A program made the position numbers and the translations under genes. A DNA stretch of 64,000 nucleotides from Actinomycetes bacterium (GTDB taxonomy: Bacteria; Actinomycetota; Acidimicrobiia; Acidimicrobiales; Acidimicrobiaceae), in contig JAJZNF010000193.1 in assembly GCA_021847985.1 (NCBI GenBank), forward strand, positions 21,866 through 85,865. Reading direction: 5' to 3'. The notes under the pieces were generated by a model that did not search any database, was not told the origin of the DNA, and saw only the letters and a list, made by a program, of their open reading frames with translations. Below, piece by piece: positions 9,939-58,291 of this stretch (within the stretch, counting starts at the first letter, position 1; every line of letters begins with the position of its first letter).

Positions 9939-9941
9939 AAC

Positions 9942-10886
9942 ATGATCGCTGTCCTCTGCGGCGGAGTCGGGGCCGCCAAATTCCTCGATGGCGCTCTTCG
10001 CGCCTTCGATGGTGAAGAGGTCGTCGCCATAGCCAACGTGGCTGACGATGAGGTCATGCATGGCCTGCACATCTCCCCCGACATCGACACCATCCTTTAT
10101 ACGCTCTCCGGCCAGGTGAACCCGGAAACGGGGTGGGGACTCGCCGGCGAGTCCTGGCGAGTGATGGAGCGCCTCGAGAAGCTCGGTGGCCAAACTTGGT
10201 TCCACCTCGGCGACCTGGACCTGGCCACCCATCTGTACCGAAGCGCGCGCCTCGGGGAGGGTGCAACCCTCACCGAGGTGACGGCCGAGTTGGCTGAGCG
10301 CTACGGCCTTGGCGTGCGCCTGCTTCCCGCGACAGACGGGGACCTCCGTACCATCGTCTCGATCCGCGATAACGACGGCTCCGTACGGGACGTCACCTTT
10401 CAGGAATACTTTGTCAAGCTGAGGCACGAACCCCACGTGAAAGCCGTCTCCTACAGGAGCGCAGGCGTCGTCACTCCCGCCCCGGAAGTTATGGACGCCC
10501 TCGCCACCGCACGGGCGATAGTCTTTGCTCCTTCGAACCCGGTTCTGTCGATCGCCCCGATCCTGGCGATCGGAGAGATTGCCGAGACGGTCGCCAAGCG
10601 CCGAAACGACGTGGTGGCTGTGACGCCAATAGTCGAGGGCCGCGCGATAAAGGGCCCCGCGGATCGAGTGCTGGATTCACTGGGTTTCGAGTCGAGTGCC
10701 TTGGGAGTGGCGCGCTTCTACGCGGACTACTCGGGTACCTTTGTCCTTGACACGAGGGATTCCGAGCTGGCCGGCAAGATTTCATCCCTGGACATTCGCG
10801 TTAGGCATACCGACACGATCATGCACGACACGGCCACAAGGACGGCACTCGCCGAATTCGTGCGCGGAGTCATCGAGGGGGTCTGA
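9942..10886 (+). CDS. cofD: 2-phospho-L-lactate/PEP transferase (F420 biosynthesis, CofD/FbiA)
   Basis: GGVGAAKF, GLHISPDIDT, WFHLGDLDLATH, FQEYFV, APSNPVLSI, IKGPA. Confidence 0.95.
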   Translation: MIAVLCGGVGAAKFLDGALRAFDGEEVVAIANVADDEVMHGLHISPDIDTILYTLSGQVNPETGWGLAGESWRVMERLEKLGGQTWFHLGDLDLATHLYRSARLGEGATLTEVTAELAERYGLGVRLLPATDGDLRTIVSIRDNDGSVRDVTFQEYFVKLRHEPHVKAVSYRSAGVVTPAPEVMDALATARAIVFAPSNPVLSIAPILAIGEIAETVAKRRNDVVAVTPIVEGRAIKGPADRVLDSLGFESSALGVARFYADYSGTFVLDTRDSELAGKISSLDIRVRHTDTIMHDTATRTALAEFVRGVIEGV

Positions 10887-36563: not shown

Positions 36564-37889
36564 GTGCCCAAGAGGATGAACGGGCGCCAGATCGTTGCCC
36601 TCACCGCTGCCTTGGCAGTGGCAGCCGGGGGATTGATCACCGTCGAAGCACAGGCCGCGCGGAACGGGCCGCCCGGACTCGGGACCGGGATCACCCCAGT
36701 CGCCTCGGGCGCCATCACCGCCGCCGAGATGCAGGCGCTGTCCCCGGTGCCCCCTCCGCCCAGCCCTTGGCAGGCTTTTGCCACCAAGGTGGACGCCGGA
36801 CCTGCGATCCAGTTCACCGGGCGATCAACGGGTTACATGATCGAGGGCCAGGGTCCCAGGCCGCGCGTGGACGGGCAGCTGGCTGCCGGGTTCCCTCCCG
36901 AATCATGGCCGGGCACCTCCGTGGTGCTCACGCGCGATGGCGGGCGACACTGGGCGAAATCCCTGACGGTGGCAGAGGGCATCTGGAGCATCGATTTTCC
37001 GAGCCGGTACACGGGATGGGCGGTCGGAGTCGCCGCCTTGTACAAGACCTCGGATCAAGGGCGGAGTTGGACCCTGGCCCAAGAGCCCGCCGGCACGCAC
37101 CTGGTCGAGGTGCGTTTCGATGGCAAAGGGCACGGAATCGGACTCGACACGGCCGGCCAGGTGCACGCGAGCATCGACGGAGGAGCAAGTTGGACGCCGT
37201 CGGAATACGGGGGCCCCTATCTCGACATCTGCCGCTCGCCGGGTGGCGAGTGGCTGGGCGCCGATTCCGGGGGGCGCCTTTGGGAGCTGGGAGCATCGCC
37301 ACCCAAGCTGGCCTTCACTCCAGGGGGCGCGATAACCAGGCACCTGAAGGCGCCGCAGATCTCCCTCTCCTGCGGCAGCGGAACCTGGGAGGTCATCCGC
37401 CAACCGGCAGGGCTGGGCCCGGGATTTCCGCAGGGCGTTCTGGTTTTCGATGCCGATCGCTCCGGTCCCTTCCGGATGGCGCTCTCCAGCGGAACCCTGG
37501 GGGCCGACGCTCGCGGGGAGGCTCTCGCGTCCTCGCAAACCGGCTTTTACCTGAGCGCCGGATACGGCGGCTCTGCCGTCGTCGCCCTTCGAAGTGCCAG
37601 GCCCGGTGAGGTGGAAGTCGAGACGCTCGCCCACGGCGGGGGAGTCTCCTCCGCCACTGTCCTTGGCGGGCTGCCGGACCTGGACTCCTTGCCGGCCTTC
37701 ATGACCAGCGCCATACAAGGCATCGCTTTGTTGCCCGATGGCTTGGGCTGGCTAAAAGTGGACGCGGAAATCCCGAGCGGCGGCATTCAGGCGCCCGACC
37801 CGCGCCGCTACTTGAGCCTGACGTTCTTTACCTCCGACGGCGGCCGCAACTGGCGCCTGCTGCGCAGGGTGGCGGTAAACACCACCTGA
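36564..37889 (+). CDS. Secreted BNR/Asp-box repeat (YCF48-like beta-propeller) protein
   Basis: Signal peptide ending near AQA; Asp-boxes TRDGGRHW, TSDQGRSW, SIDGGASW, TSDGGRNW. Confidence 0.75.
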   Translation: MPKRMNGRQIVALTAALAVAAGGLITVEAQAARNGPPGLGTGITPVASGAITAAEMQALSPVPPPPSPWQAFATKVDAGPAIQFTGRSTGYMIEGQGPRPRVDGQLAAGFPPESWPGTSVVLTRDGGRHWAKSLTVAEGIWSIDFPSRYTGWAVGVAALYKTSDQGRSWTLAQEPAGTHLVEVRFDGKGHGIGLDTAGQVHASIDGGASWTPSEYGGPYLDICRSPGGEWLGADSGGRLWELGASPPKLAFTPGGAITRHLKAPQISLSCGSGTWEVIRQPAGLGPGFPQGVLVFDADRSGPFRMALSSGTLGADARGEALASSQTGFYLSAGYGGSAVVALRSARPGEVEVETLAHGGGVSSATVLGGLPDLDSLPAFMTSAIQGIALLPDGLGWLKVDAEIPSGGIQAPDPRRYLSLTFFTSDGGRNWRLLRRVAVNTT

Positions 37890-37902: not shown

Positions 37903-38853
37903 CTAGGCAGTGGCCGCAGCCTGGAGCAAATGGTAAAGAAGGTAGAGCTGCGCGATGGCCAGCGGCTCGCTCTTCTGATCGTCGCTGATTCGGCCAAGGC
38001 TGTCCGGCAATGGCTCGTCGATGCCGAGCTTCGACCAAATAGCCGTCTTGACCTCCTGGGCGACCTCTGTGGGGGCATGGCCGTGCACGTGCAGGGCGTC
38101 CACAGGCTTGCCGTCATCGTCACGGATCAGCTTCAAGTGGATCGCCTCACGGGTGTCGGAGCTGAGGAGATACGTGAGATCGGGATGATCGATGGTCGGC
38201 CGCAGCAGGATGGAGGCGGAAAGAGGCGTGTTGGGGTCCTCGTCGGCGTGGGCGCGCCCGAAGCTGATGACGATGTCGGCGTAAGCGCGCTGCGGGCGGA
38301 TGTAGGCGGCGGACTCCGGCTCCCGCTTCTCGAGATCCGCGAGAACCTGCTCCTCGGTATAACCGCGCTGGCCCACGTCGCGCTTCACCTTCCAAGCGCG
38401 CCGGATGGATTCAGGCGGGTCAAGATAGACCGTGACGTCAAAGCATGCACGGGAGAGCTTCGACCACAGCGGAAAGAGCCCCTCGACCACGACAAAGCCA
38501 CCCGGCTCAAACAGCTCGGGGCGCTCGAGCGTGCCGTGGTGGTGGTCGTACACCGGCTTCAGTATCGGCTGCCCCATGGCCACCAGCTGCAAATGCTGTT
38601 CCATGATCTGCAGGTAGTTGCATTCGGGGTGAAGCGGGGTGAATGGCAGCGCCTTGCGTTCGATCCTGTCGTAGCGGTGGTAGTCGTCGGTGCAGAAGGA
38701 GCGGATGTTCTCCTGCCCGAGCGCTTCGACCAAACCGCGGGTAAGGGTCGTCTTTCCCACCGCCGAGTCGCCGGCGATCGCCAGCATCGGCGTGTGGGTC
38801 AGAGGGCGTTCACGATTGGCCTTTTGGATCATTGCCATGCGATGCGGCATCAT
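37903..38853 (-). CDS. prk: Phosphoribulokinase (cyanobacterial/actinobacterial type)
   Basis: AGDSAVGKTT, DDYHRYDR, KPVYDH, VEGL, WKVKRD..RGY, YIRPQRAYAD; CBB context. Confidence 0.92.
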   Translation of the reverse strand: MMPHRMAMIQKANRERPLTHTPMLAIAGDSAVGKTTLTRGLVEALGQENIRSFCTDDYHRYDRIERKALPFTPLHPECNYLQIMEQHLQLVAMGQPILKPVYDHHHGTLERPELFEPGGFVVVEGLFPLWSKLSRACFDVTVYLDPPESIRRAWKVKRDVGQRGYTEEQVLADLEKREPESAAYIRPQRAYADIVISFGRAHADEDPNTPLSASILLRPTIDHPDLTYLLSSDTREAIHLKLIRDDDGKPVDALHVHGHAPTEVAQEVKTAIWSKLGIDEPLPDSLGRISDDQKSEPLAIAQLYLLYHLLQAAATA

Positions 38854-38884
38854 CGTTGGTCCTTCCTACGCGTTTGGATGCTGT

Positions 38885-41809
38885 TCAGGCGAACTGCGAG
38901 ACGACGGAGTAGCTGCCGTTGCGGATCAGCGCCGTCGAGATGAAGTAGCCGCCCTCGCGCTTGACTATCGGATCGAGTACGCCGGCACCCGTGACCGAGG
39001 TGATCGAAACCACCGGCTCGGCGGTGACCAGATCGTCCTGGTTGAAGACCTTCTCCATGGTGCCCTCGCCAAAATCGCGAACCATCCCGGCCTCGGCCTC
39101 GCTCTGGGGCGCCAGACGCCCCTGGAACTCACCGCCGAGGGCCTTGGCCATGGCGGCCATGATCACTCCCTCCGGGGCGCCACCGACGCCGAAGAGGGCG
39201 TCGATGTGACCAACCAGCACCTCGAACGAGGCCATGACGTCGCCGTCCGGCACCTCCCGGACCCTGGCGCCCGCCGCGCGGATCCGCGCAATGAGCTCCT
39301 TGTGGCGCGGCTTATCGAGCACAATGACCTCGAGCTCGTCGACACGCTTCTCAAGCGCCTTTGCCAGCATCTCCAGGTTGGCCTCGATTGGGCTGTCGAT
39401 GGCGAGCACGCCTTTGGCCTGTGAGCCCACCACGATCTTGTCCATGTAGAAGCCGGGAACGAAGGTGAAGTTGCCCGCCGGCGCCGCAGCGATTACCGAG
39501 ACCGCACCAGGCTGTCCCTTTGCCACGTAGTTGGTGCCCTCCAACGGGTCGACCGCGATGTCGAAAGGCGTGGTGGACCCGGACCCGAGCTGCTCCCCAC
39601 GGAAAAGCATGGGCGCCTCGTCCTTTTCACCTTCGCCGATCACGACGCGCAGCGAAACCGGAGCGGCACGCAGGGCGTTGCGCATCGCCTCGACAGCCAG
39701 GTGGTCCGCACGCTTGCGATCGCCGCGGCCGATCTCGGAGACGCATGCCCGCGCCGCCTGAGTGCATGCCGCCACCATCGAGCGCTCCAGCACGAGCTCG
39801 GCATTGAGATAGCTGACGCCGGAAGACGCAGGAGCTCGCCTCGCTATGGTCTCGGCAATCCGGGCTGCCACTGCCTGGGGAGTGAACCCGAAATGGGCCT
39901 GCACCTCCGGGCCCTTGCCCGAGGCTCCGAACCCTCTCATTGCCACGATGTCGTCGGTGGACTCGACCAGGGATTCCCATCCCAGAGGACTCAGCGCCTC
40001 GACGACTACCGTCGGGAGCCCGGAGGTTATGGATTGGAGCCTGCCCTTGGTAGCCTCGAGGAAGCGCTCACGCCATAGAACCGAGATGACCCGCGCGGCC
40101 ATGCCACGCGTCTCCGCCAAGTGTTTGGCGGCATCAATGGCCAGGGAGACCTCCGACCCGGTGGCGAAGATGACCGCCTTGGCGTCCTCCGGATCCCAGA
40201 CCACCTGCGCGCCTAGCTCCGTCACCCACGAGGGGTCGCGAGCCTCTGTCACGGTCGGGAGCGCCTGCCGGGTGAAGATGAGCGCCGAGGGCATGGAACC
40301 GTCGCCAAGCGCCACGCTCCAGGCGGCGATGGTCTCGTTGCCGTCCGCGGGACGCATGACCCGCAGGCCGGGAATGGCGCGCAAAGCGGCCACCTGCTCG
40401 ACCGGCTGATGGGTCGGGCCGTCCTCGCCGACCGCGATGCTGTCATGGGTGAAGATGAAGGCGACGGGCAGCTTCATCATGGCTGCCAAGCGGATAGCGG
40501 GGCGCGAGTAGTCCGCAAAGACGAGGAAGGTCGATCCGAACGGGACGAAGCCCCCATGAAGCGCTATCCCGTTCAGGACCGCCGACATGCCGTGCTCGCG
40601 AATTCCGAAGTGGATGAGCCTCCCGCTGAAATCCCCCGGGCGCACCGCAGGCAGCTCGAGATTCGTTCCGGTGGACTCGCCCAGGTCGGCCGTTCCTCCA
40701 ATCAATCCCGGCAGCCGGTCGAGAAGCTGAGCCAGGACCTCTTTGGAGCTGACGCGCGTGGCGACCTTGCGGTCCGGCGCGAAGGGTGCCAGCGCGCCGG
40801 CCAGCTCCCCCGCGGAGGGGATCGTGGCGGTGAAGACCGATGCCACTTCCGGCCCGGCGGCCTCGAAGCGCTCCCGCCAAGTGCTCGCCATGGCGTCGCC
40901 GGCGGCGGCTACTTCGGCAAAGTGCGCATAGACGTCGGCAGGGATTTCGAACGGCGGGAACTCCCAGCCGAAGAACTCCCGGGTGGCGGCCATCTCGGCC
41001 GCCCCCAGGGGCGAGCCGTGCACCGAGGACTTGCCGGCCTTGTGGGGAGCGCCGTAGCCGATCACCGACTTGAGCTCGATCAGGGTGGGCGCCTCGGTGT
41101 GGGCCTTTCCCTCCTCCATCGCGGCGGTGATGGCGTCGACGTCCTGGGCGTCTTCGACGAGCAAAGTGTGCCAGCCGTAGCTGGCAAACCTGGCCCGGGC
41201 GTCGTCTGAGCAGGACAGAGAGGTGCTTCCGTCGATGGTGATGTCGTTGGAGTCGAAGACGACGATCAGGCGCCCCAGGCCCAGGTGTCCGGCCAAGGAT
41301 GCCGCTTCGTGCGAGATGCCTTCCATGAGATCGCCGTCGGAGGCGAAGACAAAGGTGTAGTGCGAGACCAGCTCCCCATGTCCGAGCTCCTCGGCACGGC
41401 TGCGCAACATCTCCTCGGCCAGGGCCATGCCGACCGCCGTCGATATTCCCTGGCCAAGTGGCCCCGTGGTCGTCTCGACGCCCACGGTATGGCCGTGCTC
41501 GGGGTGCCCGGGGGTCAGCGAGCCCAGCTGCCTGAAAGAGCGCAGGTCATCGATGGTTAGCCCGTAGCCGAACAGGTGCAGAAGCGAGTAGAGCAGCGCC
41601 GAGCCGTGTCCCGCCGAGAGGACGAAGCGGTCCCTGCCGGGCCACGACGGATTAGCCGGGCTGTGCCGGAGGACCCGCGCGAAGAGAGCGTATGCGGCGG
41701 GCGCGAGACCGAGGGGCAGGCCGGGATGTCCGGCATTTGCCCACTCGACCTGGTCCACCGAGAGCATGCGGATCGCAGTCACGCACTTGTTGTCTATTTC
41801 AGTCGCCAT
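38885..41809 (-). CDS. Transketolase fused to class II fructose-1,6-/sedoheptulose-1,7-bisphosphatase (GlpX), 974 aa
   Basis: aa 1-~660: [56 protein letters not shown]. Then in frame without a stop: [37 protein letters not shown]. Confidence 0.92.
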
Positions 41810-41824
41810 CGCTGAACTCCTTGC

Positions 41825-42511
41825 CTATTGGCCGACGGCCGAAGCCGCAATTGAACGGATCTCCGAAACGGCGGCTTCGAGACCGCCGGGGTGTCGGAAG
41901 AGCGCCGAGCCTGCCACCAGCGCCCTCGCCCCCGCGGCAGCCGCGCCTGCCACGGTGGACGCGGATATGCCCCCGTCCACCTCGATCTCGATCTGATTGG
42001 ACACGCTTTCCGCCAGCTCGTGAGCCTGCCTGACCTTGCGCTCCATGGTTGCGATGTACGCCTGACCACCGAATCCGGGGTTCACGGTCATCACCAGGAT
42101 CAGGTCGCAAAGATCCGCGACGTTCTCGACGGCCTCGATTGGAGTGGCCGGATTCAGGGCTACTCCCGCCTTGGCGCCGGCCTCCTTCACCCTGGCCAAG
42201 GTGCGATGCAGATGCCGCGTCGACTCCGCGTGCACGATGAGCAGCTCGCATCCGGAGGCCACGTAGCGCTCTATGTACTGGTCCGGCTCGACGATCATCA
42301 GGTGGGCCTCGAACGGCAAGGCGGTCACGCCGCGAGTGGAGGCGATCACATCCGGGCCGAAGGTGAGGTTGGGCACGAAGACGCCGTCCATCACGTCCCA
42401 CTGGATTCGGTCGACGCCCGCTTTCTCCAGATCCACCAAGGCGTTGCCCAGCTGCGAGAAGTCTACGGGCAGCACGGAGGGGATGATGGATATCTCCTGC
42501 TTGGCGCCCAT
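41825..42511 (-). CDS. rpe: Ribulose-phosphate 3-epimerase
   Basis: PSVL, DVMDGVFVPNLTFG, EAHLM, HAE, MTVNPGFGGQ, EVDGGI. Confidence 0.95.
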   Translation of the reverse strand: MGAKQEISIIPSVLPVDFSQLGNALVDLEKAGVDRIQWDVMDGVFVPNLTFGPDVIASTRGVTALPFEAHLMIVEPDQYIERYVASGCELLIVHAESTRHLHRTLARVKEAGAKAGVALNPATPIEAVENVADLCDLILVMTVNPGFGGQAYIATMERKVRQAHELAESVSNQIEIEVDGGISASTVAGAAAAGARALVAGSALFRHPGGLEAAVSEIRSIAASAVGQ

Positions 42512-42613
42512 ATTTGGCCTCCCTCGCTCCAGCGACGCGGGTCCTGGAAAACAGGCGCCCGCAGAAAGCTTGCTTTATATATAGAAACCCTATGGCCGTG
42601 CACCCCAATCGGC

Positions 42614-42633
42614 ATTCCCCCATATATGGGATT
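42614..42633. promoter_or_regulatory. Putative operator box 1 (ATTCCCCCATATATGGGATT) between rpe and the response regulator
   Basis: Quasi-palindrome; 15/20 identical to the reverse complement of 45799-45818. Confidence 0.55.
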
Positions 42634-42750
42634 CGCCCTCACCTGCGCACCGCGACGCCGGCGCGCGACCCGGCTGTGCCGCGTATTCTGTGCAGCGAGC
42701 GAGTGGGGACGCCACGCCGCGGCAAACTTGGGGCAAATAGGATCGTATAG

Positions 42751-43437
42751 ATGGCGCTCGACAGCGACAAAGAGGTCCGGCAGCAGCAACCGTTGACGGT
42801 GCTGCTGGTTGACGACCAGGAGATCATCCTGGATGGCATCTCCACCATGATGAGGCGCTTCGAATCCCAGGTGAAGATAGTCGGCCGACTCAAGAACGCA
42901 AAGGCCGCGCTCGCTTTCGCCGAGGAGAACCCCGTCGACATCGTCATCACCGACATCAGACTGCGCAGCGAAAGCGGCATAGACCTTTGCCGCGACTTCG
43001 CTACGCGCTTCCCCGACGTGGCCGTGGTGATGCTGACGGTCTACGACGACGAGCAATACCTTTTCCAGGCGCTCCGCGCAGGCGCAAGGGGCTTCCTCCT
43101 CAAGCAGATCAGTGCTGCCGAACTTCTCGAGCAGCTGCTGCGCGTCGCAATCGGCGACATCGTGGTGGATCCGCATCTGGCCGGCCGAGTGGCCCTTTCC
43201 GCCGCAAGGCTGCACTCGGGCGAGTTCTGGCCCGGCGCCCATCTTGGCCTCACCCAACGCGAGTCCGAAGTCCTCGACCTGGTCACAAAGGGGCACTCCA
43301 ACAAGGCAATCGCCGCCCGCCTCTACTTGGGTGAGGAGACCGTAAAGACGCACCTGAGCGCGATCTACCGCAAGCTCGGCGTGCGTGACCGCACCTCGGC
43401 CGTCGCCCTTGCGATGCGCGAGGCGATCTTCAGATAG
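42751..43437 (+). CDS. NarL/LuxR-family response regulator (MnoR-like)
   Basis: VDDQ, TDIRL phosphoacceptor, FLLK; LTQRESEVL...SNKAIA...ETVKTHL...KLGV HTH. Confidence 0.93.
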   Translation: MALDSDKEVRQQQPLTVLLVDDQEIILDGISTMMRRFESQVKIVGRLKNAKAALAFAEENPVDIVITDIRLRSESGIDLCRDFATRFPDVAVVMLTVYDDEQYLFQALRAGARGFLLKQISAAELLEQLLRVAIGDIVVDPHLAGRVALSAARLHSGEFWPGAHLGLTQRESEVLDLVTKGHSNKAIAARLYLGEETVKTHLSAIYRKLGVRDRTSAVALAMREAIFR

Positions 43438-43445
43438 GAGCCCCC

Positions 43446-44618
43446 GTGACCGCCTCCATGCCACCCGAAGGCGAAAACCTCGGCCACGACCTCCTGAGGA
43501 GCGTGCTGGACGCGATCAGCTCCGTGACTGAGCTGGACGCCCTCGCCGACACGGTCGCAAAGCTGGTGACCGATGCCGTCGGCGCCGATGTCTGCTTCGT
43601 TCACCTTGTCGAGGAACCGAGCACCCATCTCGGGCTCATCGGTGCCACACCACCTTACAACCAGCATCGCGGCAAGATAAGACTGGCGGTCGGCGACGGC
43701 ATCGCGGGATGGGTCGCCCAAGCCAAGACAGCGGTGATGGTCCCCGACAAATGGAAGGACACCCGGTATCGCTACATGCCGGAGCTGGGTGGCGAGAACT
43801 TCGCCTACCTCATCTCCGTGCCGATGATGCGGCCGCAGAACAAGGTGGTCGGGGTGCTGAACGTGCACTGGAAAGTGCCTCCTGCCGACCCCGAGGCCGT
43901 CATGCGCGAGCTGCAGTACGTCGCCAACCTTTTCGCCGCCAATGTGGAGCTGGCCGCCCTGGTCGAGACCCTGGAGCGGCGCGAGAAGGAGCTCGAGCAG
44001 TTCGCAACCAGCGTCATCGACGCCCAGGAATTGGAGCGCAAGAGGATCGCCGGCGACATCCACGACGGGCTGGGGCAACTCCTGCACTCCACCCTCTACC
44101 ATCTCGATGCTGCCACCTACCCGGAAGACCTGGTCTCGGCGCGCGAAGAGATAGGCGTGGCAAAGGACCTCCTCGAACGGGCCATCGCCGAGGTCAAGAG
44201 CACCATCTCGCGCCTCAGACCCCGGATCCTCGACGACCTCGGACTGCTGCCGGGCCTGTCCAGCCTGGCGGCTTCGATGGCGCGGCCCGACGTCGCCATC
44301 GAGCTTCCCGAGGCACTCGAGCATCAGCTTCCCAGCTCGACCGAAATCGCCGTGTATCGGATCGCCCAAGAAGCTCTCGCCAACGTGCAGAAGCACTCGG
44401 GTGCCACCTGGTCGTCCCTAAAGCTCTGGGAGGACCCCGCGCCTGACGCCGTCCTCCACCTGGTGATCACCGATGACGGGGACGGCATCGAGCCGGAGCG
44501 CGGAGAGGGACTCGGCCTGGTTGGCATGAAGGAGCGAGCCGAGCTGATCGGGGCAAAGCTCGACATCTACACGCGACGCGGCCACGGCACAAGAGTCCAT
44601 TTGCGCCTGCCGCTCTGA
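43446..44618 (+). CDS. Cytoplasmic GAF-domain histidine kinase, HisKA_3 type (MnoS-like)
   Basis: GAF (GDGIAGWVA, ISVPM, VGVLNV), ERKRIAGDIHDG, QEALANVQKHS, DDGDG, GLGLVGMKERA, GTRV; no TM segment. Confidence 0.92.
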   Translation: MTASMPPEGENLGHDLLRSVLDAISSVTELDALADTVAKLVTDAVGADVCFVHLVEEPSTHLGLIGATPPYNQHRGKIRLAVGDGIAGWVAQAKTAVMVPDKWKDTRYRYMPELGGENFAYLISVPMMRPQNKVVGVLNVHWKVPPADPEAVMRELQYVANLFAANVELAALVETLERREKELEQFATSVIDAQELERKRIAGDIHDGLGQLLHSTLYHLDAATYPEDLVSAREEIGVAKDLLERAIAEVKSTISRLRPRILDDLGLLPGLSSLAASMARPDVAIELPEALEHQLPSSTEIAVYRIAQEALANVQKHSGATWSSLKLWEDPAPDAVLHLVITDDGDGIEPERGEGLGLVGMKERAELIGAKLDIYTRRGHGTRVHLRLPL

Positions 44619-44655
44619 CCCACGGGTCCGGCGCGCAAGAGCAGCGCGATAACCG

Positions 44656-44690
44656 AAGAAGCCCTCCCCGCTCGGCGGGAAGGGCTTCTT
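44656..44690. terminator. Bidirectional intrinsic terminator between the kinase and the aldolase
   Basis: AAGAAGCCCTcCCCGC-TCG-GCGGGaAGGGCTTCTT long stem between convergent genes. Confidence 0.8.
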
Positions 44691-44711
44691 ACATTCCTGG
44701 TCCTTGTCGGA

Positions 44712-45713
44712 CTAGCCGCGATCAGACGCCGCCGCGAAGTTGGCGCTGGCCCGGTCGGCGAGCGCGGCCTGCGCGGCGGGCACGTCCTTGAGCTTGGTGG
44801 CCCAGGAGCTCATGGCAGCGTCCTGAAGGGCCCGGCCGTAGGAGAAGGTGATGGGCCAGGGCAGCGGCCCAAGCTCGTTCATCAAGGCAAGGTGCTCGGT
44901 GGCCTCGTGGTCATTTTGACCGCCTGAAAGCAGGGCGATTCCGGCCACCGAAGCTGGCACCGTGTTGCGGTAGCACTCCACCGATGCCGCGGCGACCTCC
45001 TTGCGGCCCGCTCGCTCCGCGGCGCCCTTGCCCGAGATGACCATGGAGGGCTTGAGAACCATCTGATCGAAGGCGACCTCCTGATTCCAAAGCTCGGCAA
45101 AGACGGCGTTCAGCGTGGCCGCGGTCACCTCGAAGGAGCGCTCGAGTGAATGGTTGCCGTCCATCAGGACCTCGGGCTCGACGATCGGCACGATGCCCTC
45201 CGCCTGGCAGATGCGCGCATAGCGCGCAAGCGCATGCGCGTTGGCGAGAATGCACGCACGGCTCGGGAGGGTGGCCTCCTCGATCCTGATCACGGCGCGC
45301 CACTTGGCAAAGGTCCCGCCCAGGGAGCGGTACTCGGCCAAGCGCCCACCCAGGCCGTCCAGACCTTCAGTGACGGTCTCGGCGGGCCGACCGGCCATCG
45401 GCTTTGCGCCGGTGTCGACCTTGATTCCAGGGAGCATCCGGTTGGCGGCCAGGAACTCCGGAACGGTCGCGCCGTTGGAGAGGCGCTGCCGGAAGGTCTC
45501 GTCGTAGAGGATCACCCCGGAGATCCAGTCCGAAAGGCCGGGCGTGGTAAAGAGCATCTCCCTCCAGGCCAGACGGGTCTCGGCGGTGGACTCGAGACCC
45601 AGCGCGTCAAAGCGCTTGGTGAGGGTTGGACTGCTCTCGTCCGCAGCCAGCAGTCCTCTGCCTCCGGAGACCATCGTCCTTGCGACTTCTCTCAGCTCGT
45701 TTGCGTAACTCAA
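44712..45713 (-). CDS. Fructose-bisphosphate aldolase class I
   Basis: GLLAADES, GIKVDTG, TEGLDGL, FAKWRAV, PIVEPEVL, LKPSMV (Schiff-base Lys), LSGGQ, FSYGRALQ; TTG start at 45713. Confidence 0.95.
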   Translation of the reverse strand: MSYANELREVARTMVSGGRGLLAADESSPTLTKRFDALGLESTAETRLAWREMLFTTPGLSDWISGVILYDETFRQRLSNGATVPEFLAANRMLPGIKVDTGAKPMAGRPAETVTEGLDGLGGRLAEYRSLGGTFAKWRAVIRIEEATLPSRACILANAHALARYARICQAEGIVPIVEPEVLMDGNHSLERSFEVTAATLNAVFAELWNQEVAFDQMVLKPSMVISGKGAAERAGRKEVAAASVECYRNTVPASVAGIALLSGGQNDHEATEHLALMNELGPLPWPITFSYGRALQDAAMSSWATKLKDVPAAQAALADRASANFAAASDRG

Positions 45714-45798
45714 CTCGACCCCCGTCGTGCTCGGCGCATGGCCACATCGGCCACGCATGGGCTCGACACCGAACCTAAGGCGCGCGCCGTCGCGACGC

Positions 45799-45818
45799 TT
45801 TCACCTATACGGGGGAAT
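45799..45818. promoter_or_regulatory. Putative operator box 2 (TTTCACCTATACGGGGGAAT) upstream of the aldolase
   Basis: Reverse complement ATTCCCCCGTATAGGTGAAA matches box 1; lies in the cbbR-aldolase gap. Confidence 0.55.
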
Positions 45819-45819
45819 C

Positions 45820-46692
45820 TCAGGATGAGAGAGAGATCTGGCCCGTGGCGGCGAGGTGGCCGACGAACGCCTGCACGGCGGCGTCCTGCTCATGGCCGGT
45901 CCGCACCACCAGATGCCACTGCTTGCTGATCGGCAATCCCGGCATCTCGATCCTGTTCACCTCGAACTCGAGACCGGTTCCTATCAGCGAGTCGAGCGAG
46001 ACCACCGCCACCCCGATGCCAAGGCTGACCGCCTGGAGGATGGCCACGTTGGAACCGATGGTCATGGTCGGCACCTCGAAGCCGGACGCGGCAAGCACCT
46101 CGAGGGCTGACTGCCTGCTTCCAGAGCCCTCCTCACGCAAAAGCCAAGTCGATGCCGCTGGATCGGGCTCCTTGCCCGCGGCCGAACCGACCAGGACGAG
46201 CGAGTGCTGGCGCGTGGCGACGGTTGTGAAAAGAGCGTTGCTGCGCGGCCGGCCGGCGATGACGACATCCACCTTGTGCGAGGCCAGAAGGTCGAACACC
46301 CGGTCGCGGTTGCCAACTTCCAGCGCGATGTCGAACTCCGGCATCGCAGCGAGGAACCCTCCGATCCAGTGGGGCAGCAGGAACTCCCCGACCGTTGTCA
46401 CCGCCCCGATGCGCAGGCTGCGCCGTGTCCGCTTCCCCGCCTCACGGGCGACGCGCGCGGCGTCCTCGAGAAGCCCGATCACCTCCACCGCCTTCTCGTA
46501 AAGGGCCATGCCGGCGTCGGTGATGGCGATATTGCGCCCATCGCGGACAACGAGATTCACACCAAGTTCGGCCTGCAGCGAGGCCAGCGCGGATGATACC
46601 GCGGCCTGCGAGACGAACAAAGAGTCCGCAGCGCGCGAAACCGAACGGTTCGCCACAACGGCTATGAAGGTTCGCAGCTGCCCCGGCGTCAC
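45820..46692 (-). CDS. cbbR: LysR-type regulator CbbR
   Basis: QLRTF...SVSRAADSLFVSQAAVS HTH, VGNR, LREEGSGSR; divergent from cbbL. Confidence 0.88.
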   Translation of the reverse strand: MTPGQLRTFIAVVANRSVSRAADSLFVSQAAVSSALASLQAELGVNLVVRDGRNIAITDAGMALYEKAVEVIGLLEDAARVAREAGKRTRRSLRIGAVTTVGEFLLPHWIGGFLAAMPEFDIALEVGNRDRVFDLLASHKVDVVIAGRPRSNALFTTVATRQHSLVLVGSAAGKEPDPAASTWLLREEGSGSRQSALEVLAASGFEVPTMTIGSNVAILQAVSLGIGVAVVSLDSLIGTGLEFEVNRIEMPGLPISKQWHLVVRTGHEQDAAVQAFVGHLAATGQISLSS

Positions 46693-46786
46693 GGCCGGCC
46701 TCCGTCATAAGGCGGCCACCTACTCATGCATCCCCCCTATTGCACAGCCGTCACAGGCGCCCCCTTAGCGCTGTGCAGCTCTATTC

Positions 46787-46862
46787 ATAAGTTCTAGCTT
46801 ATCAGATTGCCCATAAAACCTAAGCTTTTACCATTGGATTTTGGCCGTCCCACGCTTATCCT
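46787..46862 (+). promoter_or_regulatory. CbbR-type binding boxes and probable cbbL promoter
   Basis: ATAAG-N6-CTTAT (46787-46802), TAAAA-N7-TTTTA (46814-46830), then TTGGAT-N17-TATCCT (46834-46862); AT-rich island in the cbbR-cbbL gap. Confidence 0.65.
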
Positions 46863-46884
46863 CAACTGTGGTTGCACGGTATAA

Positions 46885-48519
<1,635 letters not shown>

Positions 48520-48537
48520 GAAAGAGAGCTGAGACAG

Positions 48538-48972
48538 ATGATCACCAACCCGACCGGCAGGCTGACCCAGGGCCAGTTCTCCTTTCTGCCCGACCTGACC
48601 GACGAGCAGATCTCCGCGCAGATCAAGTGGGCTCTCGCCCACGACTGGGCGGTCAGCATCGAATACACGGACGACCCCCACCCGCGCAACACGTACTGGG
48701 AGATGTTCGGGCTGCCCATGTTCGACCTCAAGGATCCAGCCGCGATCCTCATGGAGATCAACGAGGCCCGTAAGACCTTCCCCAATTACTACATTCGGGT
48801 AATGGCCTTCAACTCGACCCGGGGCGTCGAGAGTCCGGCGATGAGCTTCATCGTCAACCGTCCCGCCAACGAACCCGGCCTCGGCCTCTCGCGGCAGGAG
48901 GGACAAGGCCGCGAGATCCGCTACGGGTTCCACGCCTACGCCACGGACAAGCCCGAGGGCGAGCGTTACTAA
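48538..48972 (+). CDS. cbbS: RuBisCO small subunit, red-type
   Basis: [38 protein letters not shown], red-type C-terminal extension. Confidence 0.97.
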
Positions 48973-48996
48973 CGGACGGGCCCGCAAGCCAAATGT

Positions 48997-49028
48997 GGAC
49001 GCGGCGCCCTGGGGCGCCGCGTCCTTTT
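48997..49028 (+). terminator. Stem-loop between cbbS and cbbX (partial terminator / mRNA stabiliser)
   Basis: GGACGCGGCGCC-CTGG-GGCGCCGCGTCC-TTTT. Confidence 0.75.
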
Positions 49029-49063
49029 CGTACCAGCCATCAAGTCGACACGGGTGGAGAGAA

Positions 49064-49990
49064 ATGAGCGACACGGAGAACAAGCCCTCAGAGTTGAACG
49101 AAATCGACATCGACGCGATCTACAGGGAATCCGAGATCCAGGACGTCCTTGACCGTCTGGATGCCGAGCTCATCGGCCTGGTACCCGTCAAGACGCGAAT
49201 CCGAGAGATCGCGGCCCTGCTGCTCATCGACAAGCTGCGACGCCAGCTCGACCTGACCGCCGGCAACCCTTCAATGCACATGTCCTTCACCGGCAACCCC
49301 GGGACAGGCAAGACAACGGTGGCCATGCGCATGGCCGACATCCTCCACCGCCTCGGTTACGTCCGGCAGGGGCATTTGGTGGCCGTGACTCGCGACGACC
49401 TGGTCGGGCAGTACATCGGCCACACCGCACCCAAAACGCGTGAAGTGCTGAAGAAGGCCATGGGCGGTGTGCTCTTCATCGACGAGGCCTACTACCTGTA
49501 CAAGCCCGAGAACGAGCGCGACTACGGCGCCGAATCGATCGAAATCCTCCTCCAGGTCATGGAGAACCAGCGCGACGACCTGGTGGTCATCCTCGCCGGA
49601 TACAAGGACCGTATGGACAAGTTCTTCGAGTCGAACCCGGGGATGTCCTCGCGCATAGCACACCACATCGACTTCCCGAACTACAACCCGACCGAGTTGG
49701 TGCAGATCGCCAAGCTGATGCTGGCCGAGTCAAATTACCGCATGAGTGACGAGGCCGAGGACGTCTTCGCCCAATACGTGGTCAAGCGCATGGAGATGCC
49801 GAACTTCGCGAACGCGCGCTCCATCCGCAATGCGCTCGACCGGGCGCGGCTGCGCCAGGCGAATCGCCTCTTCAACTCTCGCGGGCGGATGCTGACCAAA
49901 GCCGACCTTATGACGATCGAGGCCGACGACTTCCTGAAGAGCCGCATCTTCTCCGACGGCGTCGACGACAACTCCGAGGACGGCGAGTAG
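49064..49990 (+). CDS. cbbX: CbbX red-type RuBisCO activase (AAA+)
   Basis: [47 protein letters not shown]. Confidence 0.97.
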
Positions 49991-49998
49991 CCGCCGCC

Positions 49999-51444
49999 TC
50001 AGCCCAGCTTCCACGCATAGGGATCGATGAGATCGTTGACCTCGCCGGGCCCGAAGCTCCCCTTTGCATACGTGATCGGCCGAGGCGGATCCTCCAGCAA
50101 GGGGGCTGATGCCTCCCACAACCTCTCGATGCCTTCGGCGGCATTGAAGAGTGTGCGGTCACCGAGCAGTGCATCGTGCAGAAGGCGTTCGTAAGCCGCC
50201 AGCTCATAACGCATGTTGAAGCTCTCCGCGTAGCTGAAGGTCAGCTCGGCCGCGGCAACGTCCATCGTGACTCCCGGCGTCTTGGCAAGAAAGCTGACCT
50301 CGATGGAGCCGGGGTCACCCAGGTCAAGCACCAATTGATTGCAGGCGCCTCCCCGATCCGGAACCTTGGCTCCCTCGAAGCGCCCCAAGTCCGGCACCCG
50401 GAATCCGAGTGTGGCCACCGACTTTTCCGCCCCCATCGCCTTTCCGGTGCGCAGGAAGAAAGGCACCCCGGACCAGCGGTCGTTGTCTATCCATACCCTG
50501 GCCGCGACCAGGGTCTCGGTCCTTGAGCCCGCCGCGACGCCCGGCTCCTGCAGGTATCCCTCGTATTGCCCAAAGACCACATCCTCCTTGGTCAGCGGCC
50601 TAAGCGCCGCGAAGACATGATTCTTGGCAGCATTGAGGCTGCGCGCGTCGAGCCGTCCAGGAGGCTCCATTGCCAGGAAACCGAGTACCTGCAATAGGTG
50701 CGTGACGATCATGTCGCGGTAGGCCCCGGTCTCCTCGTAGAAAGCTCCCCGGCCCTCGATCGTGAGCGTCTCGGGGACGTCAAGCTGGACGTATTCCAGG
50801 AAGGAGCGGTTCCACGCCGGCTCGAAGATGCCGTTGGCGAATCGTAGGGCAAGTATGTTCTGGACCGCCTCCTTGCCAAGGAAGTGGTCGATCCGATACA
50901 CCTCGTCTTCGGAGAACGCACCGTGAATGGCCCGGTTCAGTTCCTTGGCGCTTTTCAGATCGTAACCGAACGGCTTCTCGATGATCAGGCGCGACCCTTT
51001 CGCCAGGCCACTGGCCCCGAGGGCCGTGATCACGGGGACGAATGCCGGAGGGGGAACGGCCAGATAGAAGACGGCCGCCTTGGCGCCGGTCTCCTCCCGT
51101 GCGTCCTGCACCGCTGAGGCCAACCCTGAAAAGTCCGGTGTCGATGCCGAGCAGTACGAGAGGCTCTTGGCGAATTCCTCGAAGTCCGAGCCCGCTCCCT
51201 CGCGCCTCCCGAAGGTGGCCACCGAAGTGCGGGCCATCTCGACAAATCCGTCGGCATCCATCGCGATCCCCGCCGGAGCGCTCCCGATGATGCGGAACTT
51301 CTCGGGCATCAACCCGGCACGGTAGAGGTGATATAGCCCGGGTATCAGCTTCCGCTTGGCCAGGTCGCCGCTTGCCCCGAAAAGAACCAGCACTGCCGAA
51401 TCGGGTCGCAACCCCTCACTCTCTTGCTTCGTCGATGCCTGCAT
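49999..51444 (-). CDS. zwf: Glucose-6-phosphate 1-dehydrogenase
   Basis: GASGDLAKRK, EKPFG, RIDHFLGKE, RDMIVTHLLQ, RTGK, AYERLL. Confidence 0.93.
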   Translation of the reverse strand: MQASTKQESEGLRPDSAVLVLFGASGDLAKRKLIPGLYHLYRAGLMPEKFRIIGSAPAGIAMDADGFVEMARTSVATFGRREGAGSDFEEFAKSLSYCSASTPDFSGLASAVQDAREETGAKAAVFYLAVPPPAFVPVITALGASGLAKGSRLIIEKPFGYDLKSAKELNRAIHGAFSEDEVYRIDHFLGKEAVQNILALRFANGIFEPAWNRSFLEYVQLDVPETLTIEGRGAFYEETGAYRDMIVTHLLQVLGFLAMEPPGRLDARSLNAAKNHVFAALRPLTKEDVVFGQYEGYLQEPGVAAGSRTETLVAARVWIDNDRWSGVPFFLRTGKAMGAEKSVATLGFRVPDLGRFEGAKVPDRGGACNQLVLDLGDPGSIEVSFLAKTPGVTMDVAAAELTFSYAESFNMRYELAAYERLLHDALLGDRTLFNAAEGIERLWEASAPLLEDPPRPITYAKGSFGPGEVNDLIDPYAWKLG

Positions 51445-51459
51445 CAAGCCTCCCATACC

Positions 51460-52245
51460 TCAGCGCGCCTTCGGCACTTGTCCAACTTGAACGGCGAGCG
51501 GCGGAAGCCCGTGCTCCAAGCTGGGAATCACCCAGTCCGCGCCGGATTTCTCGAGCTGCTCCATGCCGTACTTGTGGCTTGCCACCGCCACGCACGCGAT
51601 TCCCGCAGCGTGAGCCGCCTCGACATCGTTGGGTGTGTCGCCGACGGCCAGGAAGGCCGCCGGGGGAACGCCCCTGCCAAAGACCACTGAGCCTCGCCGC
51701 ATGGCGGTCCTGGTGACCTCCACTCTGTCGGCTGAATCGGACCCGTAGCCACCGAAGGAGAAATACCGGTTGAGCCCGCCACGCGCCAACTTGACGTGTG
51801 CCGCGGCTTCTAGATTCCCGGTCACCAGTCCAAGTACGTAGCCCTCCTCCACCAGACGTGGCAAAAGCTCCTCCACGCCGGGCAGCACCCGATAGCCGCT
51901 GGATTCGGCAACCGTTTGAGACAGGTAGTGCATGCGCCGCTCCAGCAGCCGTGCGAACTCCGGCGCACCGGGAGAACGCCCCATGACGGCCTCGAAGGTC
52001 CTGCGGCCCACCTCGGGATCCGTCATGCCGGTGTCGCTGTAGTCGGTGATATCGGCCTCGACCCCCCAAAGGTCGGCAAAGGCCAGCTCCCAGGAACGTG
52101 CGCCCGCACCATCGGTAACGATCAGCGTGCCGTCTATGTCGAAGAGAACCGCCGCTCGGAGATCGCCGCTGGTGGAGGTGGCCGAAACCTTCGCGTCGAC
52201 GCCGGCCCCCCGGCCAACCGGGGGTTTACTATGCGTCTGAGTCAT
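51460..52245 (-). CDS. HAD-family phosphatase (phosphoglycolate phosphatase-like)
   Basis: FDIDGTL, VTGN, K motif, GDTPND; start uncertain. Confidence 0.8.
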   Translation of the reverse strand: MTQTHSKPPVGRGAGVDAKVSATSTSGDLRAAVLFDIDGTLIVTDGAGARSWELAFADLWGVEADITDYSDTGMTDPEVGRRTFEAVMGRSPGAPEFARLLERRMHYLSQTVAESSGYRVLPGVEELLPRLVEEGYVLGLVTGNLEAAAHVKLARGGLNRYFSFGGYGSDSADRVEVTRTAMRRGSVVFGRGVPPAAFLAVGDTPNDVEAAHAAGIACVAVASHKYGMEQLEKSGADWVIPSLEHGLPPLAVQVGQVPKAR

Positions 52246-56555: not shown

Positions 56556-58193
56556 TCAGCTCAGCACGACAAGCCCGTCGGCCGCCTGCCTGGCGTGATA
56601 CGACGAGCGGGTGTTGGGCGACGACTCGACGTGGCGAATGCCGAGCGCCTCCCCGTATGCCTTCAGCTCCGCAAATTCCTTGGGCGTGTACCACCGCGCA
56701 ACGGGCAAGTGCTTCCTCGTCGGACGCAGGTACTGACCAATGGTGACGATCTCGACTCCCACCGCCGCCAGATCGCGCAGTGTCGCCCTGAGCTCATCCA
56801 TGGTCTCGCCCATGCCTACGATTATCCCCGACTTGGCGACGAGCCCTTTGTCCACGGCGCCCGCAAGCACGCGCAAGCTGCGCGCGTAGGACGCCTGCGG
56901 CCTGACGGCGCGCTGGAGCCGCACCACCGTTTCGACGTTGTGGTTCAGGACTTCCGGCCGGGCGTCGTATATCGCCGAAAGCGCCTCCTCGTTCCCTTTG
57001 CAGTCGGGAATGAGCACTTCCACGCTCACCCCGGAGGTGCGCTGGCGAATCTCGGTGATCGCGTTGACGAAGCCGCTGATCCCGCCATCCTCGAGGTCGT
57101 CACGCGCGACGGCGGTGATCACCGCAAAGCGAAGCCCCATCTCCTCGACCGCGGCCGCAACACGGCGCGGCTCGTCAGGATCCATCGGTTTGGGCTTGTC
57201 GGTCTTCACCAGGCAGAACCCGCACGAGCGTGTGCAATCCTCACCGTTGATCATGAAGGTGGCGGTGCCCTGCGACCAGCATTCAAAGATGTTCGGGCAA
57301 CCTGCCTCCTCGCACACCGTCACCAGCGAAAGGCCACGCATGGTGCGCTTGAGTTCCTGGTACTCCCCACCCATGTTGGAGCGGAGCTTGACCCATTCGG
57401 GCTTCGATGAGGAGATGGCAATGCCTTCCGCCGTCGAAACGCCGGCGCTGGCAAGACGCCTGTCCAGGGAGCGTTCCGCTGCGGTCACCTTGGCGGGTTC
57501 GGCGCGAACAATCTCCCCGCTCCCATCTTCAGTCAGGTAGCCGGTGGAGGAGGAAACGCCAAAGAAGCTGTGGGTGGGACGATCGAACACCTCTGGAGCC
57601 AGCTCGGCCACCGATGCGACGACCTCCTCCATCGTGGCCGGGGACCCCTCGGCCTCCATGGAGGTGACCTCGTATTCCGCAATGCCACACGGAACTATGT
57701 GGCCAAACATGCCGAGGTCCGGGGATACGTTGAGGGCGAAACCGTGCATGGAGCGCCCGCGGCTGATGCGAACCCCGATCGCCGCGATCTTCTTGAGCCT
57801 CCCATCCGCGGACCACGTCCAAACCCCGGGAAATCCCTCGTGCCGCACGCCGGTGATGCCGTGGCGCGCCAGGGCGCGGATGACCAGCTCCTCGACCTTG
57901 CCCACGAATTCCGGCGTTGCGTTGCTCCGAAGCGGGACGTCGAGTATTGGATATCCCACCAGCTGGCCCGGGCCGTGGTAGGTGACATCACCTCCGCGAT
58001 CGACGCTGACCATCTCCGCCCCTACGGTGGCCGGGTCAACAAGAATGTGGGCTGGATCCGTCCTCACTCCGAGTGTGTACACATGGTTGTGCTCCAGCAA
58101 CAGCAGATGCTCCGCCGAACCGGCGAACAGCCGGTGCTGCAGCACATACGCGTCGGAGTAGGCAACCTTGCCGAGCCAACGGATCTCGAGCAC
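56556..58193 (-). CDS. lipA: Fused octanoyltransferase LipB - lipoyl synthase LipA
   Basis: LipB: LLEHNHVYTLG, RGGDVTYHGPGQ, KIAAIG, PCG. LipA: CEEAGCPNIFEC, CTRSCGFC, NHNVETV, RSSY. GTG 58193 with AGGAGG. Confidence 0.92.
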   Translation of the reverse strand: MLEIRWLGKVAYSDAYVLQHRLFAGSAEHLLLLEHNHVYTLGVRTDPAHILVDPATVGAEMVSVDRGGDVTYHGPGQLVGYPILDVPLRSNATPEFVGKVEELVIRALARHGITGVRHEGFPGVWTWSADGRLKKIAAIGVRISRGRSMHGFALNVSPDLGMFGHIVPCGIAEYEVTSMEAEGSPATMEEVVASVAELAPEVFDRPTHSFFGVSSSTGYLTEDGSGEIVRAEPAKVTAAERSLDRRLASAGVSTAEGIAISSSKPEWVKLRSNMGGEYQELKRTMRGLSLVTVCEEAGCPNIFECWSQGTATFMINGEDCTRSCGFCLVKTDKPKPMDPDEPRRVAAAVEEMGLRFAVITAVARDDLEDGGISGFVNAITEIRQRTSGVSVEVLIPDCKGNEEALSAIYDARPEVLNHNVETVVRLQRAVRPQASYARSLRVLAGAVDKGLVAKSGIIVGMGETMDELRATLRDLAAVGVEIVTIGQYLRPTRKHLPVARWYTPKEFAELKAYGEALGIRHVESSPNTRSSYHARQAADGLVVLS

Positions 58194-58291
58194 TTCGCCT
58201 CCTAGTGTCGCAGACTCCCCGCCGCGCATACATGGGCGCACGGGAAATGTGCGCCGGGGCCGAGCAGCCCCGGCGTCTGAGAGAACCTGAG

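Follow-up and report, generated by a model that had tools for sequence, protein, structure and literature searches.

We describe here a Calvin-Benson-Bassham (CBB) cycle locus at positions 37903-52245 of a 64,000-nucleotide stretch of DNA (hereafter the window), which is part of the longest contig (111 kb) in an Acidimicrobiaceae genome (G000; 2.78 Mb in 333 contigs, 83% complete). Our analysis suggests that this is probably a largely ancestral, intact cluster, in which a two-component pair, comprising a response regulator (RR) and a histidine kinase (HK), activates the genes for regeneration of ribulose bisphosphate (RuBP) via a dedicated operator, and CbbR, a LysR-type regulator, drives a replaced form IC RuBisCO cassette, cbbLSX. 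A broader proposal, towards which we lean slightly, is that the pair serves the phylum Actinomycetota at large, soil trace-gas autotrophs included, as a hitherto undescribed master activator of RuBP regeneration, acting independently of CbbR and sensing a metabolite through a PtsP-like GAF domain; that this division of labor turns RuBisCO into a plug-in cassette, whose forms IE, IC and carboxysomal IA have replaced one another in place within a single family; and that a family-specific Tkt-GlpX fusion channels fructose 6-phosphate (F6P) and sedoheptulose 7-phosphate (S7P).

The operator emerged from 53 spacers between RR and a divergent rpe, prk or tkt, four duplicate records having been removed. 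Expectation-maximization on these spacers recovered a palindrome with a log-likelihood of 306, as against 74 for shuffles; in the 44 loci left after removal of nine near-duplicates it takes the form TC(C/A)CCC-N4-GGG(G/T)GA, and some 7 nt beyond it lies a third half-site. On the opposite strand, 32 of these 44 loci have a TANNNT hexamer 22-23 nt away, versus 6 hits over the other 33 distances, and the exceptions are mostly from one Kribbella/Nocardioides-like clade with a variant of the box. A scan matrix trained on 41 loci, with the window's genus left out, recovered both the site before the window's rpe and an unforeseen one before fbaI, the latter being the top hit in G000. Sites over 10 bits number 312 in this genome, and just three are accompanied by the -10 hexamer, two of them in this locus. 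Among held-out loci, the site is found before prk (29/32), fbaI (17/20) and rpe (15/19) when these are first genes, rarely before RR (3/72), and never before cbbL (0/42) or cbbR (0/56). Internal genes have no sites, save fbaI when it stands behind cbbR (6/22), which is the arrangement in the window; by chance, 1 of 6450 genome tiles has a site. An additional 13 stretches, including a duplicate of an earlier locus, have it before rpe or tkt in 5/5, fbaI in 5/7 and cbbL in 0/6. It is absent from nine cbb stretches of eight RR-less genomes and from seven proteobacterial loci, and no box at threshold was found before gap-pgk-tpi or rpiB in G000. With the -10 hexamer set at -12 to -7, the box would span about -36 to -51, which is the place of class II activators. 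A sigma-70 scan found neither predicted promoter, as it needs a -35 element. The first-pass annotation had proposed separate control of cbbLSX by CbbR and of the regeneration genes by the pair; this two-arm model is supported by the predicted operator before rpe, prk and fbaI, and by a LysR-type box before cbbL. In a separate case (L216, G043:C8), the box lies about 850 nt upstream of rpe-prk-tkt in a genome with a divergent RbcL (45-49%) and a weaker RR homologue on another contig.

On the RuBisCO arm, the LysR protein scores 134.5 bits against the CbbR model NF045990, below its cut-off of 450. The gene is divergent from cbbL with a TAA-N8-TTA box between them, which fits a CbbR-like placement. 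The CbbR consensus is TNA-N7/8-TNA. TAA-N8-TTA emerged from 25 cbbR-cbbL spacers and, unlike the RR palindrome, is given without a shuffle control. The cbbL leader (46868-47034) is long, about 170 nt, and is conserved in the closest clade only; it yielded no sign of structured RNA (z -0.01 versus shuffles) and no Rfam match. The hairpin between cbbS and cbbX (48997-49028) may reduce activase relative to RuBisCO.

In its genomic distribution the pair goes with the regeneration genes of the CBB cycle. Searches with two RR peptide patterns hit about 1200 stretches, of which 601 were scanned and 580 confirmed, the best 80 being the RR loci counted here. A CBB gene is found in 80/80 of these nearest loci, and prk, rpe or tkt lies within 1.5 kb of RR in 77/80. 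In an evenly drawn sample of 301 genomes from the phylum, with only 10 candidates per genome scored, RR is found in 18, cbbL in 21 and prk in 25; RR and cbbL occur together in 12, as against about 1.3 expected under independence, an excess inflated by kinship (two unpublished genomes enter these tallies and no other claim: G185, which has both genes, and G159, one of the nine with cbbL only). Within the family RR is present in 29/47 genomes and is missing from g2 (0/3) and g6 (0/11), with cbbL likewise absent from the four g2/g6 members tested. A palindrome is retained beside RR in 4/4 g99 genomes lacking cbbL and prk, and in three of these the pair faces a HAD gene. The one HAD compared is 47% identical to the HAD ending the rpe-tkt-prk operon of a Mycobacterium plasmid, pointing to the remnant of an operon since lost. 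These g99 loci (L209, L210 and L212 at about 9600-10750; L211 at about 9820) keep RR-HK with a perfect box; in three the divergent HAD stands beside valine-catabolism genes, and a GTCACA element next to the box resembles a CRP half-site. Identities other than a CBB regulator fared poorly: RR scores 139/300 and 123/300 bits against the alcohol-metabolism regulators MadR and MctR, below their cut-offs and with cbb genes as its neighbors; HK likewise falls below the cut-offs for MadS (56/500) and MctS (136/700); and coxL or a hydrogenase large subunit occurs in only 1/80 and 0/80 RR loci, respectively. RefSeq names for the pair are generic only.

The predicted structure of HK (mean pLDDT 91.6, pTM 0.60) has a GAF domain followed by a long helix leading into HisKA_3, and no hydrophobic segment is seen in the protein (top 19-residue hydropathy 1.49). 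The nearest solved GAF folds are those of PtsP, 3ci6 and 3trc (target TM-scores 0.84 and 0.87; identities 28% and 20%). Residues K102, D105, R107, Y108, Y110, S124, N139 and H141 of the GAF domain, a set with basic and aromatic members, are invariant in 109 sequences. Fold and sequence searches identified no ligand; there is an even chance, in our estimate, that it is a small cytoplasmic anionic metabolite, either a sugar phosphate or an acid reporting carbon/energy status. On the proposed mechanism, the soluble HK would bind such a metabolite in its GAF pocket, phosphorylate its own H206 and hand the phosphate to D68 of RR. An RR dimer would then occupy the palindrome, which has its center near -43 and adjoins a poor -35, and would bring RNA polymerase to the promoters of rpe-tkt::glpX-prk and of fbaI. 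CbbR, on its TAA-N8-TTA box, would drive cbbLSX; the GlpX half of the fusion would yield F6P and S7P as ketose donors for the fused transketolase half, and oxidation of H2 or CO could supply the energy.

Trees for a hand-picked subset of about 55 loci (17-49 rows per gene) set RuBisCO apart from the rest of the cluster. The family forms clades for cbbR (support 99), prk (94-95), HK, fbaI and tkt, and the RR, rpe and glpX trees are compatible with the same grouping at weaker support, so that the histories of these eight genes are consistent with vertical inheritance. The cbbL genes of g1, g4 and G022, on the other hand, cluster with seven proteobacterial rows (99), and the window's cbbL is 81% identical to that of Afipia versus 70-76% to actinobacterial form IE sequences. 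Approximately unbiased (AU) tests rejected monophyly of actinobacterial red-type cbbL (p 0.0009, the more trusted of the two) and of the family's cbbL (p 6e-92, less trusted). Given its grouping with proteobacterial red-type sequences we assign this cbbL to form IC, the form names following PMC12999727 and not a labelled reference set. The slot that it occupies carries form IE or carboxysomal IA in relatives: genus g3 has an IE-type cbbL there, and in G015 a form IA cbbLS-csoS2-csoSCA operon is divergent from cbbR-fbaI-RR-HK. Taken together, the trees point to a likely foreign RuBisCO (cbbL, probably along with cbbS and cbbX), replaced by a proteobacterial-type form IC; the direction of transfer is taken from PMC12999727 and not from our tree. 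Lateral acquisition of rbcL in Acidimicrobiia (PMC12999727) and multiple rbcL transfers (PMC11697166) have already been reported. The first-pass annotation, which had called for per-gene trees, viewed the locus as assembled from parts of different origin; that view is not supported in this form, cbbL being the only significantly incongruent gene and the eight genes with family-level groupings being consistent with vertical descent. In another family, a locus (L227, G247:C34:8000-27999) has an RR-type cluster with three boxes and a cbbL 84% identical to that of the window, with cbbS and cbbX at 63%, possibly an independent replacement.

The order of the 12 genes is identical in G005 and G011, and in G003 as far as the end of its contig. 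Genus g3 has the same core order, genus g4 has it with RR-HK flipped and without rpe, and in G001, G002, G008 and G009 cbbLSX is inverted with no fbaI within the stretch. The order rpe, RR, HK, fbaI, cbbR, cbbL is seen in 12/80 RR loci, including those of Kribbella and Nocardioides, one having extra genes inside; the Mycobacterium plasmid NZ_CP012886.2 has prk-tkt-rpe, RR-HK, fbaI and cbbLSX, with cbbR absent from that slot. Judged by gene order, the core arrangement recurs not only across Acidimicrobiaceae but also in Kribbella, Nocardioides and Mycobacterium, and is ordinary for Actinomycetota. The locus is not a mosaic confined to this genome, and the architecture, which the first-pass annotation did not recognise as described, is shared with others. 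Two records of the same system carry labels from outside the phylum: L159, titled Chloroflexota, has this RR-HK pair along with the box and cbb genes, which points to either whole-cluster transfer out of the phylum or misbinning, and a kinase (P0089) 91% identical to the window's HK is labelled as a Nitrospiraceae metagenome-assembled genome, and is likely misbinned or mislabelled.

The GlpX part of the fusion matches PF03320 over cut-off and falls just below that of TIGR00330 (254 versus 259 bits), with the class II fructose-bisphosphatase (FBPase) motifs GEGE, DPxEGT, KPRH, DGD and GxPEG all being present. Of 18 family genomes examined, 15 have the fusion as a single open reading frame (ORF); in G001, G008 and G009 it is split into two neighboring genes. 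Among 8000 candidates scored, 85 were long GlpX-bearing proteins, 32 of them also with transketolase domains, and every organism-named member of the 32 is from Acidimicrobiaceae, to which the fusion thus appears to be specific. Named relatives of the fusion and the kinase come from Acidithrix sp. C25, Ferrimicrobium, Ferrithrix and Acidimicrobium ferrooxidans, and JGI annotation already labels the fusion by its domains. In the subclade of G009, G008 and G001 (L024, L025, L034), besides the split fusion, the locus has no fbaI, cbbR lies on a different contig and RR is faced by a second box.

The remaining steps of the cycle are encoded on other contigs of G000, with gap, pgk and tpi adjacent on C307 (tpi being cut by the contig end), rpiB on C157 and two transaldolase (tal) copies. 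As read from the genes, together with the intact RuBisCO and phosphoribulokinase motifs, G000 has a genetically complete CBB cycle, in line with the functional CBB locus inferred in the first-pass annotation; that annotation had also proposed a search for energy genes elsewhere in the genome, and this turned up an uptake hydrogenase and a form I CO dehydrogenase (CODH). Contig C4 encodes a group 1-type uptake hydrogenase (the small and the large subunit together with cytochrome b and a protease), and on C109 there is a coxL that exceeds the form I cut-off and carries the AYACSFR motif; both systems are shared by G005 and G011. G002 has no full-length match to the uptake hydrogenase, so cultured relatives may differ. 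G000 additionally has genes for a group 4-like (hyf/Ehr-type) membrane complex (C101:26410-33062).

Several observations weigh against this reading of the cluster. The -10 rule holds in only 13/22 rpe training loci, the window's own rpe site is imperfect (10.4 bits), only 1/5 held-out tkt-first loci have a site, and the g99 palindromes have no -10 at 22-23 nt. RR is present in only 12/21 cbbL genomes of the phylum sample, and cbbL is missing from 6/18 RR genomes; upon rescoring all candidates in eight of the nine cbbL-only genomes, the best match to RR reached only 4e-47. The RR-locus counts are not independent, as the 80 are the closest of 580 and many are kin. With regard to replacement, cbbS and cbbX group like cbbL, but the AU tests leave family monophyly standing for them (p 0.15 and 0.09), and the family's form IC cbbL clade is sister to the seven proteobacterial rows and not nested within them. 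Finally, Acidithrix ferrooxidans, which has a form IC RbcL, is reported to be unable to fix CO2 (PMC12999727).

Other explanations have to be set beside these data. RR bound to the box might repress the regeneration genes, or mainly control its own divergent promoter, given that the box sits between rpe and RR, that a second box faces RR in 3/72 RR-first loci and that a site at the edge of the -35 could block polymerase; we consider this unlikely, as the spacing is fixed at 22-23 nt on one side only, fitting a polymerase contact of the kind established for class II activators, and as the box goes along with fbaI and prk when these are moved away from RR. It is more improbable still that another factor, such as CbbR or a global regulator, reads the box with the pair merely hitchhiking: the core of the predicted operator has the many matches in G000 noted above, but the box is absent from cbbR-bearing clusters without RR, is kept beside RR where cbb genes are lost, and its variant pairs with a variant of the RR helix in 10/11 loci of one clade. 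That the locus is chimeric in its assembly, or was recently put together from several donors, is scarcely credible. The cbbL incongruence would suit this reading, and so would the lack of a read-derived contig across the whole stretch (four DNA runs from one mine-drainage study, possibly the source, cover all 30 bins, with no assembled piece spanning the whole); it is largely refuted by the gene order repeated in independent genomes, in view of which we rejected a chimeric assembly, and by the family-level groupings of the eight genes and a third-position GC content of 0.82-0.89 across the core genes. Compatible with activation by the pair, and a serious possibility though short of an even one, is that the regulation is as proposed and that the role of the cycle in this genus lies in mixotrophy or redox balance and not in autotrophic growth. 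The report on Acidithrix ferrooxidans favors this, as do the description of Acidithrix as a heterotroph (PMC8305228) and the absence of carboxysome genes from this locus; the full CBB set, the group 1-type hydrogenase and the form I CODH of G000, G005 and G011 speak for autotrophy.

All 12 ORFs are intact and lie in the place, order and strand first described, the inventory being confirmed by models over cut-off from NCBIfam (prk, the tkt part of the fusion, rpe, class I aldolase, form I cbbL, cbbX and zwf) and Pfam (the GlpX part, cbbS, LysR, a receiver domain with LuxR helix-turn-helix (HTH) for RR, GAF+HisKA_3+HATPase for HK, and HAD). Catalytic motifs are intact in cbbL, tkt, glpX, prk, fbaI, cbbX, RR (D68) and HK (H206). 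Probable start codons were revised to TTG 47035 (cbbL), TTG 45713 (fbaI) and ATG 49064 (cbbX). G000, at 83% completeness, yielded no further copy of tkt, rpe, prk, fbaI or cbbLSX.

Table 1. Genes and predicted regulatory features of the CBB locus (positions in the window; a point marks features given without strand)
Feature	Position	Strand	Remarks
prk, phosphoribulokinase, PRK07429 type	37903..38853	-	last in predicted rpe-tkt::glpX-prk operon
tkt::glpX fusion	38885..41809	-	transketolase aa 5-655; class II FBPase/likely sedoheptulose-bisphosphatase aa 677-965
rpe	41825..42511	-	first gene of operon; sole rpe found in G000
predicted -10 hexamer TAGGGT, rpe-tkt::glpX-prk promoter	42587..42592	-	23 nt from box
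predicted RR operator TCCCCCATATATGGGA	42616..42631	.	10.4/15.1 bits, matrix trained without this genus
RR, NarL/LuxR-type response regulator	42751..43437	+	family motif GEFWPGAH
HK, soluble GAF-HisKA_3-HATPase sensor kinase	43446..44618	+	GAF closest to PtsP GAF domains
hairpin between convergent HK and fbaI	44656..44690	.	possible bidirectional terminator; found by eye, missed by terminator scan
fbaI, class I fructose-bisphosphate aldolase	44712..45713	-	likely start TTG 45713; first ATG 45758
predicted -10 hexamer TAGGTT, separate fbaI promoter	45772..45777	-	23 nt from box
second predicted RR operator TCACCTATACGGGGGA	45801..45816	.	14.4/17.9 bits, top score in G000
cbbR-like LysR regulator, actinobacterial lineage	45820..46692	-	
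predicted CbbR site, LysR-type TAA-N8-TTA box TAAGTTCTAGCTTA	46788..46801	.	motif without shuffle control
cbbL, red-type form IC	47035..48519	+	groups with proteobacterial sequences
cbbS	48538..48972	+	
terminator-like hairpin and T run, cbbS/cbbX gap	48997..49028	+	
cbbX, red-type RuBisCO activase	49064..49990	+	
zwf	49999..51456	-	one of three copies in G000; local neighbor outside conserved locus
HAD phosphatase	51460..52245	-	local neighbor; unrelated to HAD of mycobacterial cbb operons

The zwf and HAD genes, which the first-pass annotation had included in the block, are convergent with cbbX and among 20 stretches occur there only in G000, G003, G005 and G011, the closest clade, and so lie outside the conserved locus; having no box, they were also rejected as members of the regulon. 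The HAD did not match as a CbbZ/CbbY phosphatase either (58.6 bits versus the phosphoglycolate-phosphatase cut-off of 225; E 0.47 versus the mycobacterial HAD). On the other flank, a BNR-repeat protein (36564-37889, +), convergent with prk, has 60-63% identity in G005/G011 versus 91-97% for the core cbb genes. Further out, a LipB-LipA fusion (56556-58241, -), with both NCBIfam models over cut-off, stands beside 2-oxoacid dehydrogenase E2/E3 genes. The window has no tRNA and no Rfam match.

In the literature searched, which excluded subscription papers, we found no description of the pair, the box or the fusion, although earlier gene maps may show the pair; nor did we find anything there on how actinobacteria with red-type RuBisCO, which are candidate CO2 fixers though with autotrophic growth shown for few (3/21 genera in PMC12999727), switch the cycle on. 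The regulation is directly testable, as each locus offers a named kinase, a regulator, a 16-bp operator and a pair of promoters, and a constitutive allele could reveal whether strains scored as non-autotrophic were simply never induced. The box with its -10 is a marker of regulon membership. If the division of labor between the pair and CbbR is true, RuBisCO would be a plug-in cassette. Its likely exchange in place lets forms IE, IC and IA be compared as they occur in nature, within a single host circuit.

Dual control of cbb genes by a LysR protein and a two-component system is already known, and the division of labor in this family differs from that in the known cases. In purple bacteria, RegB/RegA (PrrB/PrrA) is a second, phosphorelay input to cbb operons besides CbbR, RegB being a membrane-spanning HisKA redox kinase and RegA a global regulator with a Fis-type HTH. 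The present pair is alike in adding a phosphorelay to CbbR and unlike in its HK, which has no hydrophobic segment, and in its two credible sites in the genome; with HisKA_3, a LuxR HTH and the low hydropathy noted above, it was rejected as a RegB/RegA system. CbbRRS, a three-protein system, is encoded between cbbR and cbbL. In Rhodopseudomonas palustris it is likewise a dedicated two-component system in a cbb cluster beside the LysR-type CbbR (PMC6430793), and its proteins act on form I RuBisCO expression; here there are two proteins and no box at cbbL, so that an identity with CbbRRS was also discarded. The GAF domain of HK shares its fold with that of PtsP (EI-Ntr), with the invariant residue set being specific to the HK family. 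Lateral gain of rbcL is alike in Acidithrix ferrooxidans (form IC) and Acidimicrobium ferrooxidans (form IA) (PMC12999727), whereas the exchange of IE, IC and IA cassettes in place beside a retained cbbR, the fusion and the two-component arm are all absent from the available portions of PMC12999727 and PMC11697166. The closest counterparts are the actinobacterial form IE clusters of Kribbella and of the Mycobacterium intracellulare subsp. chimaera AH16 plasmid, which have the same core, prk-tkt-rpe / RR-HK / fbaI-(cbbR) / cbbLSX. The Mycobacterium locus has the same box and spacing, and the window differs from these clusters by the tkt::glpX fusion and the form IC RuBisCO.

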